Source: Gemmatimonadales bacterium
Lineage (GTDB): Bacteria; Gemmatimonadota; Gemmatimonadetes; Gemmatimonadales; GWC2-71-9
Length of the DNA: 61,912 nucleotides
Reading direction: 5' to 3'
NCBI GenBank assembly: GCA_038258395.1
Contig: JBBSPX010000001.1
Span: 1 to 61,912, forward strand
Below are positions 56,655 to 61,912 of this stretch, in pieces. Within the stretch, counting starts at the first letter, position 1. The number at the start of each line of letters is the position of its first letter. The translations under genes and the position numbers were made by a program. Below the pieces are notes generated by a model that had not been told where the DNA came from, made no database searches, and saw only the letters and a program-made list of their open reading frames with translations.

Positions 56655-58037
56655 TCACACGCTGCGCGGCGGCCCCTCCAGCAGGTCTTCTTCGTCGCTC
56701 GTCTGCCGCTCGGCCTCGATTTGCTGATCTACCGCATCATCAACCGATACGTCCGCGTGGGTAACCATCCTCGCGGGCGTGGTCGATTTCTGCTCCGGTG
56801 ACTCGGGCGCCGGATCCGCAACCATCCGCACCAGATACTCGGGCGAGGGCAGCGTCAGGCCGGCGGCTTCGAGCTGGTGCTTGACGACCCGGATCGCCTC
56901 ACTGCGCACCCGGTCGAACTCCGCGTCGCGGCGATCCATCCACGCCAACACCCGGATCGTCACACTCGAGTCGCCGACGCCCATCACCAGGGCCTGCGGC
57001 GCCGGTTCGTTGCATACACCCGGCATCGCCAGCAAGGCGGCGATCACCACTTCCTGAGCGTGCGCCAAGTCATCGGCGGCCCCCAGCCCCAGATCGAATT
57101 CGAAGCGACGCAATGGATTGCGGCTGAAGTTGATCAGCGGGCTGCGAAAGATCAGGGCGTTCGGCAACCGGATGTGGTTCCCGTCAAGACTCATCAGGAT
57201 GGTCTCGCGCGCCGTGAGTCGGAGCACCTTTCCCTCGAACTGGTCGACGCGAATCTGGTCGTTCTTCGCGAACGGTTGCCGAATCGCGAGGATCGTCCCG
57301 GCCAGGTAGTTCTCGACGATGTCCTTGAACGCGAAGCCAATCGCCAGACCGGCGAGACCCGCCGTGCCGACGATCGCGCCAACGATGGCGGTCGCGTCCA
57401 GCAGGTCGAGGGCGACAATGATGCCGAGCACCACGACCACGCCTTGGATGAACCGGCGAATCAGCCCCTGCAAGAAGGGATTCCTGGTGCGCAGGAACGA
57501 CGGCCCACTCCAGCGAGCGAGCATCGAGCCGAGCCATCCGGCAATCCCGATGATCAACAGCGCCACCAGCAACAGCGGCAGCTTCGCGATCGCCCCGTAG
57601 CCCATCGCTCGGAGGCGAGCCCATGTCGGGGCGAGTTGCTCCTCGAGCGACGTCGATTCCGCGATCCGGTTGTCGACGAACACCACGCCACTCATGTCGG
57701 CCGCGAGTGCGCCCGCCTCTGTCCGGGTCACTTTGTCCAGCACCGAGCCGGTCAGCCGCACGACGCCGGCATCCACCGTCACCGTGACGCCCGTCAGCCC
57801 CGGCACCCGATCGAACACCGCCTGCAGTGCCCCCCGAATCGCCTGGTCCTGCTCGGCACGCGAGGTGGTGACAGGTTCTGGCTCCGCTGGGGCGGCCGGA
57901 AGCTGACCGGCACTGTCCTTGACAGAGAGCGACTCGGCCACGCCGACGGAGGTCGTCTGGGCCCAGCCCGCGGCCGGAACGCCCAGCAGCAAGGCGAACC
58001 CGATGATGTTGGCGAAGAGCAGGTGGCGTGGTCGCAT
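56655..58037 (-). CDS. MscS-family mechanosensitive channel with N-terminal BON domain
   Basis: Signal peptide, then BON-like 'IRGALQAVFDRVPGLTGVTVTVDAGVVRLTGSV'. Three TM helices follow, then the MscS beta-domain 'IRVDQFEGKVLRLTARETILMSLDGNHIRLPNALIF'. Confidence 0.85.
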   Translation of the reverse strand: MRPRHLLFANIIGFALLLGVPAAGWAQTTSVGVAESLSVKDSAGQLPAAPAEPEPVTTSRAEQDQAIRGALQAVFDRVPGLTGVTVTVDAGVVRLTGSVLDKVTRTEAGALAADMSGVVFVDNRIAESTSLEEQLAPTWARLRAMGYGAIAKLPLLLVALLIIGIAGWLGSMLARWSGPSFLRTRNPFLQGLIRRFIQGVVVVLGIIVALDLLDATAIVGAIVGTAGLAGLAIGFAFKDIVENYLAGTILAIRQPFAKNDQIRVDQFEGKVLRLTARETILMSLDGNHIRLPNALIFRSPLINFSRNPLRRFEFDLGLGAADDLAHAQEVVIAALLAMPGVCNEPAPQALVMGVGDSSVTIRVLAWMDRRDAEFDRVRSEAIRVVKHQLEAAGLTLPSPEYLVRMVADPAPESPEQKSTTPARMVTHADVSVDDAVDQQIEAERQTSDEEDLLEGPPRSV

Positions 58038-58199
58038 CCTTCAAGTATGGGGCGACGGCAAGGTGATCGCCACTGTTACGCGATGATCCCACTTCACGCG
58101 AACTGGCGCGTCATGGAGGAGAGCGAGAACCATCCTCCAGCCCGGGCCCAGTGCCATGCACGACGTCATCACCTCGATGTTGCACAGGAAGGCGGGCGG

Positions 58200-58223
58200 G
58201 GAATCGAGCACCGGTTCCGCGTA
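58200..58223 (+). promoter_or_regulatory. Possible ECF-type promoter (GGAAT-N15-CGTA)
   Basis: 'GGAATcgagcaccggttccgCGTA' ends 27 nt upstream of the ECF sigma ATG. The spacer is 1 nt shorter than the common AAC-N16-CGT pattern. Speculative. Confidence 0.25.
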
Positions 58224-58249
58224 TTGGCTTCGCGCTGTAGCTTGGGAGG

Positions 58250-58822
58250 ATGGACGAACCCTCCGCAGGCGGGATCACCCAACTGCTCGACGAGGTGCGC
58301 CAAGGGGTCCCTGGGGCCGCCGACGCCCTCGCCTCACGCGTCTACGACGAGCTCCATCGGATCGCGGTCAACGCGATGCGTCGCGAGAGCGACGGGCACA
58401 CCCTGCAGCCGACCGAACTGGTCGACGAGGCCTTCATGCGCCTGGTCGGCAATCGCGACGTCACCTGGCACAATCGGTCGCAGTTCTACGCCCTTGCTGC
58501 CCAGTCCATTCGACGCATCCTGATCGATCACGCCCGGCGACGACGCCGAGTCAAGCGTGACTACGGCATACGCGTCACGCTCGACGATTCGATCGGCAAG
58601 GGGGCATCGGACTCCCTCGACCTCATTGCCCTCGATGAGGCACTCCGCCAATTGCACGACCTTTCCCCTCGTCAGGGCAAGGTCGTTGAACTCCGGTTCT
58701 TCGGCGGGCTCGGCGTCGACGAGACCGCCGAGGTGCTTGAGATCTCACCGGCAACAGTCAAGCGTGATTGGACCTTCGCCCGCGCCTTCCTCCTGCAGCA
58801 GCTCGATCCTCCCACTGCCTGA
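58250..58822 (+). CDS. ECF sigma factor of the kinase-associated 'ITQLL' type
   Basis: 'GITQLLDEVRQG...LASRVYDELHRIA', 'TLQPTELVDEAFMRL', 'NRSQFYALAAQSIRRILIDHARRR' and a region-4 HTH 'EVLEISPATVKRDWTFARAFL'. Confidence 0.9.
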   Translation: MDEPSAGGITQLLDEVRQGVPGAADALASRVYDELHRIAVNAMRRESDGHTLQPTELVDEAFMRLVGNRDVTWHNRSQFYALAAQSIRRILIDHARRRRRVKRDYGIRVTLDDSIGKGASDSLDLIALDEALRQLHDLSPRQGKVVELRFFGGLGVDETAEVLEISPATVKRDWTFARAFLLQQLDPPTA

Positions 58823-58837
58823 AGCGGGGCGACCCCG

Positions 58838-61381
58838 ATGACTGAGATTCGGCTCACGGCCGACCGCCTCGAGCAGTTGCAGGGATGCTTCGAGCAGGCG
58901 CTCGACCTCGATGCCGGGCCACGTGAGGAGTACCTCACCACCGTCGCCAACATGGACGCCGATCTCGCGCACCGCGTGCGCGGTCTGTTGGTGGCGCACC
59001 ACCGCACCGGTCGCAATCTCGACAGCCCCATCTCTCACGACACCCTCGTCTACCACGATCCCAGCACCGACCGCATGCTCGGGGTGAGAGTTGGCGCGTA
59101 CGAGGTGGTGCGGCGGATCGGCAGCGGCGGCATGGGCACCGTCTACGAGGCCACCCGCGCCGACGATCAGTACAACAAGCGCGTCGCGATCAAGTTCCTG
59201 CGTCATCAGGCCGCGGGCGAGGAGACACTCCGGCGATTCCGGTATGAACGCCAGATCCTCGCCTCACTCGATCATGCCAACGTCGCGGCGCTCCTCGATG
59301 GCGGAATGACCGCCGACAATCAACCGTATTTCGTGATGGAGTACATCGAGGGCGAGCCGATCACCCGATGGTGCGATGCCCGCGCGCTCGGGATCACTGA
59401 GCGGCTCGACCTCTTTCAGCAAATCTGTGCCGCGGTGCAGTACGCGCACCAGAGCCTCGTGGTGCACCGCGACCTCAAGCCGGGCAACATCCTGGTCACC
59501 GACGCCGGGGCGGTCAAGTTGCTCGACTTCGGGATCGCCAAGCTGCTGCGGAGTGAGGGCAACACCGACGATGGCAGCGTGGCGCTACCCGCCACCAAGG
59601 TCGGTGCCCGCGCCTACACGCCCGAGTACGCCTCGCCCGAACAGATTCTGGGACTCCCGGTCGGCACGCGCTCCGATGTGTACGCGCTCGGTGTCGTGCT
59701 CTACGAGTTGCTGACCGGTCTGGTGCCATTCGACCTCGAAGGGAAGTCGGCCGCCGACATCGAGCGCGTCGTGGCAGAGGTCGCACCCATGCGGCCGAGC
59801 AGCGCCTTGCCGGCAACTCGCGCCGCGCAACTGTCCGAACGAACGCCGGCGGCAGCGCGCGCAAGGCTGGGTGGCGACCTCGACGCGATCGTGTTGATGG
59901 CACTCCGGAAGGAACCGGAACGGCGCTACGGGTCGGCCGAAGAATTCGCGGCGGACGTGCGACGCCACTTGCAACGTCGTCCGGTCTTGGCACGCCCGGA
60001 AGGGATGGGCTACCGGCTCGGCCGGTTGGTTCGCCGGCATCGGCTCGAGACCGCCGCGATCGCGATCGCGATGCTCTCGTTGGTGGGTGGCATGTGGGCC
60101 ACATCCCGAAAGGCGACCGAGGCCGCCAGGCAGCGCGAGCGCGCCACCGAGGTCAAGAGTTTCCTGGCCACGATGCTCAACGCCGCCAACCCCTCGTCCT
60201 TCGGCCGCGATGTCCAGGTGCGCGTGGTGCTCGACTCGGCGGCGCTTCGGGTGGATAGCCTGCACGATCAACCCGGGCTGGAAGCCGAGATTCGTGAGAT
60301 CATCGGCGGCACCTATCTGGCCCTTGGGGAGTTCGAGCCGGCGGAACGTCAGTTCCGGCGTGGACTGGCCGCCAACATCGCGGCGGCCCCTGACGGCGAT
60401 CGCGCCACCGCGGCGGCGCTCGGGCGCTTGAGCTCGGCGATGGAGTACCAGGGCCGGTACGTCGAAGCCGATTCGGTGCTGCAGGAGTCAATGGCGCTCT
60501 ACCAACGCTTCGCACCCGACGACGAGCAAATGCGTGCCACGCTCCTCGATGCCCGGGGCAATTTGATGGTGCGGTTGGGCCGCATGTCGGAGGCCGAACC
60601 GCTCCTCAAGGAAGCGCTGGCGATCGAGCTCCGGACGACGCCTGTCAACGATTCGGTGCGGGCGTTCTACTATGCCAATCTTGGCGTGGTCACCAGTGAA
60701 CTCGGTCGACACCTCGAAGCCGAGTCACTCCTCATCCTCGGGGTGGCGGCGGCGAAGCGGGCCCACGGAGATGTGCATCCGTTGGTCGCATCGATCCTCT
60801 CTCCGCTGGCCACTGTGCAGGAATTTGCGGGGCGTAACGAGCAAGCGGAATCGACGTACATCGAGACATTGCAGATGCGGCGGAAGTTGCTCGGACCGGA
60901 GCACCCCGAGTACGCGTGGACGATGTTCAACTACGCCGACCACTTGTTGCGGGTGGAGCGGTATCCGGAGGCAGCCGAGTGGGCGCGCAAGGTGCTGGCG
61001 CTCCGCGGCAAGACCTTGACCGACGACCATCCCGCGGTGGCGACCGCGATGGGATTGCTCGGCCGCGCACTCGACCGCATGGACTCGCTTGAGGCGGGCG
61101 AGCGGTGGTTGCGGGAAAGCTGGCGAATTCGGCAGGAGACGTTCCCCGAAGGACACTATCTCATCGCTTCAAGCGAGAGCATACTCGGCGAACACTTTGT
61201 CCTGACCGGTGACTATGCCAAGGCGGAGAAGCATCTGCTCGCGGGAGAACGTGACTTGTTGGCGTCACGCAGCGAGGACGCACCGATCATGCAGGATTCG
61301 CGGCACCGCATCGTGAAGCTCTACGAGGCGTGGGGCAAGCCCGACGAAGCCGCGCTGTGGCGCGCGAAGTTGCATGAGTGA
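58838..61381 (+). CDS. Ser/Thr protein kinase with TM helix and C-terminal TPR array
   Basis: 'IGSGGMGTVYEA', 'VAIK', 'HRDLKPGNILV', 'DFGIAK' and 'YASPEQ'. It has a TM segment 'AAIAIAMLSLVGGMW' and then ~400 aa of TPR-like repeats. Confidence 0.9.
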   Translation: MTEIRLTADRLEQLQGCFEQALDLDAGPREEYLTTVANMDADLAHRVRGLLVAHHRTGRNLDSPISHDTLVYHDPSTDRMLGVRVGAYEVVRRIGSGGMGTVYEATRADDQYNKRVAIKFLRHQAAGEETLRRFRYERQILASLDHANVAALLDGGMTADNQPYFVMEYIEGEPITRWCDARALGITERLDLFQQICAAVQYAHQSLVVHRDLKPGNILVTDAGAVKLLDFGIAKLLRSEGNTDDGSVALPATKVGARAYTPEYASPEQILGLPVGTRSDVYALGVVLYELLTGLVPFDLEGKSAADIERVVAEVAPMRPSSALPATRAAQLSERTPAAARARLGGDLDAIVLMALRKEPERRYGSAEEFAADVRRHLQRRPVLARPEGMGYRLGRLVRRHRLETAAIAIAMLSLVGGMWATSRKATEAARQRERATEVKSFLATMLNAANPSSFGRDVQVRVVLDSAALRVDSLHDQPGLEAEIREIIGGTYLALGEFEPAERQFRRGLAANIAAAPDGDRATAAALGRLSSAMEYQGRYVEADSVLQESMALYQRFAPDDEQMRATLLDARGNLMVRLGRMSEAEPLLKEALAIELRTTPVNDSVRAFYYANLGVVTSELGRHLEAESLLILGVAAAKRAHGDVHPLVASILSPLATVQEFAGRNEQAESTYIETLQMRRKLLGPEHPEYAWTMFNYADHLLRVERYPEAAEWARKVLALRGKTLTDDHPAVATAMGLLGRALDRMDSLEAGERWLRESWRIRQETFPEGHYLIASSESILGEHFVLTGDYAKAEKHLLAGERDLLASRSEDAPIMQDSRHRIVKLYEAWGKPDEAALWRAKLHE

Positions 61382-61396
61382 GGCTCCACGAAGCGC

Positions 61397-61527
61397 GCCC
61401 ACAGGCTGAAGCCTGGGCTCGGCACTGACAGAGGCTGAAGCCTCATTGGGATCGTTGGATTCATTGGGAGCAGAGGCGGGTTTACCCGCCCTCAGTGCCG
61501 AGAAGCGGCTATCAGCCGCTGGCCAAG
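61397..61527. repeat. 131-nt multi-hairpin repeat element, copy 1
   Basis: It contains hairpins 'aggct ga agcct' (x2), 'ggcggg ttta cccgcc' and 'gcggct atc agccgc'. There is a long-range 11-bp pairing 'ctcggcactga'(61419-29)/'tcagtgccgag'(61492-502) and an internal direct repeat 'cattggga'. Confidence 0.9.
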
Positions 61528-61573
61528 GTCCTCGTGTGACACCACATCGCCCTTCCCCACAGTCATGATGCGA

Positions 61574-61677
61574 TGTCACGCTGAGCGAAGCGAAGCGGCG
61601 GCAACCGGACGTGCGCTGATCTTGGCCAGATACAGCGGAATATCATGCACCGCCGCTTCGCTTCGCTCAGCGTGACA
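61574..61677. repeat. Perfect 28-bp inverted repeat with 48-nt spacer
   Basis: 'tgtcacgctgagcgaagcgaagcggcgg' (61574-61601) is the exact reverse complement of 61650-61677. Confidence 0.95.
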
Positions 61678-61698
61678 GTGCTCGGGTTTTACGATTGA

Positions 61699-61858
61699 GC
61701 CCACAGGCTAAAGCCTGGGCTCGGCACTGACAGAGGCTGAAGCCTCATTGGGATCGTTGGATTCATTGGGAGCAGAGGCGGGTTTACCCGCCCTCAGTGC
61801 CGAGAAAGCCTGCCCCGCCCCAGAAGGGCGGCGGGGCGGCTATCAGCCGCTGGCCAAG
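61699..61858. repeat. Multi-hairpin repeat element, copy 2 (131 nt + 29-nt GC-hairpin insertion)
   Basis: Offset 302 nt from copy 1. There is a single substitution (61408 g / 61710 a), and it falls in a hairpin loop. The 29-nt insertion at 61807-61835, 'agcctgccccgccccagaagggcggcggg', is itself an imperfect hairpin. Confidence 0.9.
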
Positions 61859-61912
61859 CGACTGTCCTTACCCTTACTGCTCCCGTTGGAGTGCGCGCTG
61901 TTGGGTACATGC

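Follow-up and report, generated by a model that had tools for sequence, protein, structure and literature searches.

A probable BIME-like mosaic of REP-type hairpin repeats downstream of a protein kinase gene in a Gemmatimonadales bacterium

What is the duplicated, strongly folding stretch of DNA that follows a Ser/Thr kinase gene at the end of contig JBBSPX010000001.1 of a Gemmatimonadales bacterium (GenBank assembly GCA_038258395.1)? The window analyzed here is the entire contig, 61,912 nucleotides (nt) long (contig C1 of the source genome, G000), and it ends 54 nt past the second copy of the duplicated unit. The source genome is a draft metagenome-assembled genome (MAG) of a soil bacterium, 2.58 Mb in 241 contigs, 82% complete, with 65.8% G+C. 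An earlier note, made from the sequence, had described the region as one element with the order direct repeat, long inverted repeat, direct repeat, and had considered it either a mobile noncoding element or a pair of structured small RNA (sRNA) genes. Our analysis suggests instead, with a probability of roughly three in four, that the region is a mosaic of repetitive extragenic palindrome (REP)-type DNA repeats, similar to the bacterial interspersed mosaic elements (BIMEs), whose hairpins are handled by HUH/Y1 enzymes. The parts of this mosaic belong to independent families, and the repeated unit is itself composite.

The mosaic, of about 460 bases, begins 16 nt 3' of the kinase stop codon (61381), and, in agreement with the earlier note, no open reading frame (ORF) of coding quality exists past that codon. 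The features are as follows, with G046 denoting a genome of the same genus used for comparison.

58838..61381, plus strand: Ser/Thr kinase-TPR gene (Pkinase, 160.6 bits; TPR_12, 127.7 bits)
61397..61527, plus strand: composite unit copy 1, 131 nt, consisting of an outer hairpin, the core, and a REP-1-like hairpin (repeat finder, DNA fold)
61699..61858, plus strand: composite unit copy 2, 131 nt plus a 29-nt insert; orthologous to the single unit at G046:C81
61418..61502, minus strand: core element of copy 1, 85 nt
61720..61804, minus strand: core element of copy 2
61397..61417, plus strand: outer stem-loop GCCCACAGGCTGAAGCCTGGG, which with the following CTCGGC makes a GCCGAG-tagged hairpin in reverse orientation
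61497..61527, plus strand: REP-1-like stem-loop GCCGAG-AA-GCGGCT-ATC-AGCCGC-TGGCCAAG
61574..61677, no strand: TGTCAC-family doublet, 104 nt, similar to the REP doublets known as REPINs; arms at 61574-61601 and 61650-61677
61807..61835, plus strand: nested 29-nt GC hairpin AGCCTG-CCCCGCC-CCAGAAG-GGCGGCGGG, without target duplication
58093..61668, no strand: 3,576-nt segment absent from the orthologous G046 site

The repeat finder returned a direct repeat of 108 nt (61397-61504 and 61699-61806, 99%), its 23-nt tail (61505-61527 and 61836-61858, 100%), and an inverted repeat of 28 nt (61574-61601 and 61650-61677) whose arms are 100% complementary and separated by 48 nt. As had been reported, the second copy carries a 29-nt insertion (AGCCTGCCCCGCCCCAGAAGGGCGGCGGG, at 61807-61835), and apart from this insert a single base sets the two 131-nt copies apart: at unit position 12, within the first hairpin loop, copy 1 has G (61408) and copy 2 has A (61710). 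The 11-bp closing stem (61418-61428 and 61492-61502), the pair of hairpins inside it, the direct repeat CATTGGGA, and the GCGGCTATCAGCCGC hairpin at the terminus are readable in the sequence and were recovered in the DNA fold of the unit (-36.1 kcal/mol, z = -4.15; the z score of the RNA fold is -10.2). The stretch from CTCGGC to GCCGAG is called the core in the following.

The suggestion that the region is of a REP-like kind was right, in that each of its parts belongs to a dispersed intergenic family, while derivation from an insertion sequence (IS) as a miniature inverted-repeat transposable element (MITE) is not borne out, target-site duplications being at chance level. When the source genome was searched by BLAST with the 131-nt unit, as had been proposed, no further full copy was found, and partial copies were present on more than 10 contigs: unit positions 1-32, 71-106, and 83-127 recur separately and in either orientation. 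The outer stem-loop module GCCCACAGGCTGAAGCCTGGG exists alone on contigs C100, C18, C168, C134, and C67. The repeats of the region represent at least four hairpin-forming families dispersed across the genome, three of which were counted by pattern: REP-1 (55 copies), the TGTCAC family (90 arms, 82 of them intergenic), and core half-sites (about 15 to 30), with reversed-pattern controls giving 0 to 2 matches. Counts of intergenic position and context were obtained with a codon-usage gene mask that covers 84% of the genome and are approximate. Most copies of the families have tandem or convergent genes on their two sides, and few have divergent ones, which is the usual distribution of REPs; many copies are found at contig ends. 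Related loci share a common grammar, hairpin-GGCTCGGCACTGAGGG-hairpin-CCTTGCTC...GAGCAAGG-hairpin-CCCTCAGTGCCGAGCC-hairpin.

A scan for perfect hairpins in G000 gave 6060 against 4730 in shuffled sequence, and the commonest motif abutting the stem was GCCGAG. Most hairpins with this motif belong to REP-1 (GCCGAG-CCGCGGSC-N4-GSCCGCGG-TTTGGTYCGC), which has 41 exact-pattern copies in G000 and reaches the 55 given above with one mismatch (reversed-pattern controls, 0 and 1, respectively). The 3' hairpin of the unit is a REP-1 variant, as is seen when REP-1 is written GCCGAG-CC-GCGGSC-N4-GSCCGC-GGTTTGG, and the 5' hairpin is a further stem-loop that bears the GCCGAG tag and runs in the opposite orientation. 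REP-1 is restricted to G000, G012, and G046 among the 52 genomes compared within the genus. In G000, it surrounds RAYT-1, a single-copy gene on contig C157 that encodes 169 amino acids (aa); an HUH motif (PDHLHAIL) and a tyrosine motif (YIANNP) were read by eye, and the top NCBIfam match is the REP-associated tyrosine transposase (RAYT) model (REP_Tyr_transpos; E = 2.6e-15, 56.6 bits). An orthologue of RAYT-1 with at least 82% identity and with REP-1 flanks is present in each of the three genomes, and its site is syntenic in G000 and G012, where the same S41-type peptidase gene adjoins. A second RAYT-like gene, RAYT-2 (C130:1-1100), is 49% identical to RAYT-1 and is flanked by another repeat, REP-2 (TTAGGGGCGAC-N6-GTCGCCC-GGCA; 53 matches), and the same arrangement is found in G046 (G046:C2). 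Because RAYT-1 is paired with REP-1 and RAYT-2 with REP-2, G000 carries classical REP-plus-RAYT pairs. A third, short RAYT-like ORF of 114 aa exists on contig C199 of G000 (L054:1345-1950), where it precedes a tandem pair of units, each about 57 nt long (…CCGCACCGATCATCCCCC…CCCATCCATGCATG…); this locus has no member of the repeat families analyzed in this work.

The core is an inverted doublet, CTCGGCACTGA...TCAGTGCCGAG, that encloses the hairpins AGGCTGAAGCCT and GGCGGGTTTACCCGCC. Expressed in half-sites, it is an inverted doublet of "CTCGGCACTGAGGG plus hairpin" set between two GCCGAG-tagged stem-loops. The core of G012 is a tight 79-nt doublet with four helices and zero unpaired bases at the junction. 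Both cores of the window are the reverse complement of the consensus orientation of the family, and both have lost the consensus inner stem (CCTTGCTC/GAGCAAGG), with the CATTGGGA direct repeat in its place. Core half-sites, searched as CTCGGCACWGA-NRG-hairpin (reversed-pattern control, 0 to 1), are present in G012 (28 matches), G046 (19), G000 (15), G045 (15), and G050 (5), and there are few or none in the other congeners. In an alignment of 12 core sequences, 91.6% of the cells pair; most pairs are invariant, most changes break pairs, and only 5 pairs are changed on both sides, which is not persuasive either way. This pattern looks like that of decaying palindrome copies and gives no support for a selected RNA fold. 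The earlier argument that structure-preserving variation points to selection on the fold was built on one substitution and on the insert, which is a nested repeat, and it does not hold for the core family. Real compensatory variation was found in the local hairpins of the TGTCAC arms (see below), not in the core. At another core locus of G000 (C43:17600-17808), an apparent tRNA 3' end (GGGTCGCGGGTTCGAGTCCCGCC) is directly followed by a hairpin and a core that reaches the contig end.

A Y1 gene is associated with the core family in related genomes. In G012, a gene of 128 aa (C6:8158-8541) has arrays of core half-elements on both sides; its orthologue in G050 (G050:C40), 61% identical, likewise has core half-elements on its flanks; and in G018 (G018:C141) a pseudogene copy with one TAA lies amid more-diverged CTCGGC-tagged hairpins of the same grammar. 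The core-linked protein clears the NCBIfam cutoff for IS200/IS605 transposases (61.2 and 57.4 bits versus 55), and it obtains 30.5 bits with the RAYT model. Within one genome, the Y1 genes are diverged single copies, 44 to 61% identical to each other, with no adjacent tnpB. Flanking Y1 genes were found for REP-1 in three genomes, for the core in G012 and G050, and, with more-diverged relatives of the core, in G018, and they were not found for the core in G000 or for the TGTCAC family. The repeat cluster within which contig C7 of G000 starts is orthologous to the one on the right side of the G012 gene (89% identity over 1.1 kb, at C7:154-1223; the regions compared were C7:1-270 and G012:C6:6658-10041). 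Because C7 begins inside the orthologous cluster, the Y1 site expected in G000 coincides with an assembly gap.

The 28-bp inverted repeat between the two units, the perfection of which had been noted correctly, belongs to the TGTCAC family. Each of its arms reads TGTCAC, then GCT-GA-GCGAAGC-GA-AGC, then GGCGG, and a degenerate pattern derived from the window arm (TGTCAC-SCY-GA-RC-GNA-GY-GA-RG) was used for the search, which returned the 90 arms given above and none for the reversed control. Seventy of the 90 arms stand in 35 head-to-head doublets, the window doublet being one and the other 34 lying by themselves elsewhere in the genome; 22 doublets measure 85 nt, 11 (including that of the window) 104 to 106 nt, and 2 measure 70 nt. 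Doublets thus prevail over single arms. In most doublets the arms are of different subtypes (GCC...GGC versus CCCC...GGGG), so that their mutual complementarity is partial; the window inverted repeat is perfect because its two arms share one subtype, and this is the only oddity of the window copy. The family is present in 40 of the 52 genomes of the genus. Of 71 genomes sampled from the taxonomic family, 29, which belong to 13 genera, contain it, and outside the taxonomic family a single match was obtained in 79 sampled genomes of the phylum.

Each TGTCAC arm keeps its own hairpin, formed around a GCGNAGC mini-hairpin and showing strong compensatory changes. Pair 6:22 is G:C in 49 arms, C:G in 37, and other in 4 (position 22 lies outside the search pattern); pair 8:20 is C:G in 76, T:A in 13, and other in 1; and pair 11:17 is G:C in 40, A:T in 47, and G.T in 3. 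Of the 90 arms, 82 have a GNA triloop at the tip, and 86 have GA/GA flanking the tip. On the strand as written, mismatches in these hairpins are G.T in about 11 cases and A.C in about 1. The excess of G.T over A.C, together with the GA and GNA features, indicates that one strand of each arm folds, and since the folding strand is on opposite DNA strands in the two arms of a doublet, single-stranded DNA (ssDNA) fits better than a transcript. GCGNAGC is known as an extraordinarily stable DNA mini-hairpin (PMC13037366), and d(GNA) loops have likewise been described (PMC3201870). The tip of the window arm, GCGAAGC, is of the same d(GCGNAGC) type with its GNA triloop (PMC13037366, PMC3201870); it differs in that it is embedded in a genomic repeat, with tandem G.A pairs, a covarying stem of 3 to 4 bp, and TGTCAC on the 5' side. 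A literature search with the TGTCAC arm motif gave only primers and unrelated matches. TGTCAC doublets often lie between inverted heptamer arrays, (GCGAGAA)n...(TTCTCGC)n or (GAACGAT)n...(ATCGTTC)n, as at C167:4810-4990, C51:2240-2420, C62:40-220, and C143:3290-3480 of G000, and it may be that arrays and hairpin repeats together make up a single larger element.

Comparison with G046, whose neighboring genes are 86 to 94% identical to those of G000, reveals how the region has changed at the DNA level. On contig G046:C81, the orthologue of the window MscS-BON gene (56655-58037) is followed within about 90 nt by ...GAGCGAAGCGTGACA-GTGCTCGGGTT...GATTGA and a single unit, and the flank downstream of this unit matches 61859-61912 at 69%. 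Like copy 2, the G046 unit carries A at position 12; it is without the 29-nt insert, and 4 of its 131 positions deviate from copy 2. Because the G046 unit shares this A and has no insert, copy 2 is the resident copy and the 29-nt hairpin, absent also from copy 1, is an insertion. Relatives of this hairpin exist on C158, C2, C160, C155, and C137, and on C158 and C67 they are nested in other hairpins; the loose pattern used for this family gave 745 mostly spurious matches, and only clear relatives were counted. Where G000 has the 3,576-nt segment at 58093-61668, comprising an extracytoplasmic function (ECF) sigma gene (58250-58822), the kinase gene, unit copy 1, the spacer, and most of the TGTCAC doublet, G046 has 9 nt, and the right edge of the segment falls inside the right arm of the doublet. 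The other genomes compared are less informative at this site: G012 has only paralogues of the kinase (53% identity) and no DNA match for the MscS-BON neighbor, and in G033 and G044 the neighbor gene is present but followed by another gene, with no repeats. A second orthologous locus (C18:19170-19290 in G000; G046:C1, L095:1431-1680) has kept its flanks and one of the two outer hairpins; a replacement stands where the other was, and the core aligns better when flipped (39.5 versus 15.5). The nested insertion without target duplication, the empty site in G046, and the flipped core show dynamics at the level of DNA.

It may be asked whether the same observations could be explained by RNA, by another class of transposable element, or by the assembly. 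The units, the inverted repeat, or both could be structured RNAs, either sRNA genes or stabilizers and terminators in the 3' untranslated region, that have spread through selection on an RNA function. The start of the mosaic 16 nt past the stop codon, the preference of the members for positions downstream of genes in tandem or convergent arrangement, the strong fold (z = -10.2 as RNA, -4.15 as DNA), and the conservation of the orthologous G046 unit, which far exceeds that of its flanks, are all compatible with this explanation, and the prevalence of G.T wobbles over A.C mismatches in the arm hairpins shows that one strand matters. However, the functional strands of the two arms of a doublet are on opposite DNA strands, and a single transcript would hold only one of them in sense. 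GCGNAGC with its GNA triloop is a motif of DNA mini-hairpins (PMC13037366, PMC3201870). The proposed Rfam/Infernal check of 61200-61912 (E <= 10) gave noise only, with no family near its threshold (best E = 0.26, 16 bits versus gathering scores of 44 to 90), and the same interval contains no sigma-70-like promoter and, on either strand, no terminator consisting of a hairpin plus a T tract. The inner helix is lost in the window copies, the core is flipped at an orthologous locus, and core covariation is weak, with pairs mostly broken. We consider an RNA function unlikely as the cause of these repeats, and the pair of sRNA genes proposed earlier is accordingly not supported.

That the repeats are MITEs, i.e., deletion derivatives of DDE-type IS elements moved via terminal inverted repeats (TIRs), is suggested by their length (about 85 to 190 nt) and by their inverted termini (TGTCAC...GTGACA, and GAGCCCACGGG...CCCGTGGGCTC in G012), yet it is hardly probable at all. 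Direct repeats beside the 35 TGTCAC doublets are no commoner than in shuffled flank pairs and have the same distribution of lengths, the 29-nt insertion made no target duplication, the only transposase genes seen embedded in repeats are of the Y1/HUH type, and the two arms within a doublet are often unlike, each still forming its own hairpin, which fits recognition of hairpins rather than of TIRs. An assembly artefact, in which one unit was traversed twice or two loci were joined via a repeat, would account for copies that are 99 to 100% identical, for the contig end 54 nt past copy 2, and for the many family members at contig ends. It is very unlikely, as the flanks of the two copies differ on both sides, copy 2 has a private insert and a private base, and the single unit of G046:C81 has, to its left and right, flanks that match those of copy 2.

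The interpretation of the region as a mosaic of REP-type repeats handled by HUH/Y1 enzymes is itself met by several contrary observations. The 56.6 bits of RAYT-1 fall below the equivalog cutoff of 80 bits of the NCBIfam model (NF047646), and a PDB sequence search with RAYT-1 yielded no relative at E <= 1. The search for a Y1 gene with core elements on its flanks was negative in G000, G046, and G045, and the link between core and Y1 gene rests on three relatives and on the assembly-gap argument. No Y1 or other transposase gene flanked by TGTCAC repeats was found, and the TGTCAC family exists in genomes with no match to the RAYT model, namely, G031 (98% complete, 27 arms), G040 (110 arms), and G047. 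The catalogued REP superfamilies are tagged GTAG or CGTC (PMC3733652), whereas the tags read here are GCCGAG, CTCGGCAC, and TGTCAC, and neither GTAG nor CGTC tags were found in these repeats; in those superfamilies, the tag is an unpaired tetranucleotide at one end of the stem-loop (PMC3733652). Finally, only 4 of 131 positions separate copy 2 from its G046 orthologue, whereas the downstream flank is 69% and the neighboring gene 89% identical (P about 0.001 against the 10.6% divergence of that gene), and such conservation could reflect selective constraint on the sequence instead of selfish spread.

For the TGTCAC family in particular, it is conceivable, with a small but real probability, that it is not a RAYT-dependent REPIN at all but a long-lived repeat of one Gemmatimonadota family, built on GCGNAGC and either moved by an enzyme of an unrecognized type or kept by the host as an ssDNA signal, which could serve, e.g., in replication, recombination, or nucleoid organization. 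Compatible with such a reading are the presence of the family in genomes where no Y1 gene was detected, the strand specificity of its hairpins, and the inverted heptamer arrays that frequently bracket it.

IS200/IS605 elements and their gene-less derivatives (palindrome-associated transposable elements, PATEs) have a Y1/HUH transposase that recognizes subterminal hairpins in a strand-specific manner, and they have neither DDE-type TIRs nor target duplications. The Y1 genes described here resemble them in their flanking hairpins and in the lack of target duplication but are single copy rather than multicopy IS elements, and the genes are surrounded by arrays of repeats that exceed them many times in number. 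In mode of action, the closest known systems would be this hairpin-guided, single-strand transposition and that of REP/BIME/REPIN sequences with their RAYTs. The latter systems, known from enterobacteria and pseudomonads and termed REPtrons, with RAYT also called TnpA-REP (Bertels and Rainey 2011, PMC3116915; PMC3337134; PMC5581495), share with the present families short, GC-rich, imperfect palindromes in tens of copies; an extragenic location, mostly at the 3' ends of genes; inverted doublets with fixed spacing and mosaics of several motifs; a single-copy, vertically inherited Y1 gene amid its own repeats (RAYT-1/REP-1 and RAYT-2/REP-2); and insertions without target duplication. The differences are that the host belongs to Gemmatimonadota, that the RAYT-like proteins lie below the NCBIfam RAYT cutoff while the core-linked Y1 protein scores as IS200, that the core palindrome has four helices and two inner hairpins that are unlike each other, and that the TGTCAC family has no associated transposase gene. 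Thus, several repeat families are new, and their kind (REP/BIME/REPIN, selfish or semidomesticated DNA) is already known.

Taking the region as a BIME-like mosaic, we infer from these sequence comparisons that the repeats act, and would spread, as ssDNA hairpins via HUH/Y1 transposases of the IS200/RAYT type, with mobilization probably following the "peel-and-paste" mechanism of Y1 enzymes. The enzyme of the core would be the IS200-like Y1 protein, whose G000 locus is expected in the assembly gap. The local duplication of the unit may have arisen together with the gain of the sigma/kinase segment, and any effect on the kinase mRNA, such as 3' stabilization or transcription pausing, would be a by-product.

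To our knowledge, REP/REPIN systems have been studied almost only in Proteobacteria. A literature search on Gemmatimonadota and repetitive extragenic palindromes found nothing relevant, and a term search of two REP surveys gave no mention of Gemmatimonadota (PMC3733652, PMC5581495). The repeats break MAG assemblies, as is seen in the many copies at contig ends and in a transposase gene that probably lies in a gap, and annotation and screens for RNA motifs should not mistake them for sRNA genes. In G000 and its congeners, families coexist of which two have their own RAYT-like gene, one is linked to IS200, and one is abundant with no enzyme in sight, so that the clade is a small, naturally occurring model in which to study the choice of hairpins by Y1 enzymes and the persistence of orphan repeats.

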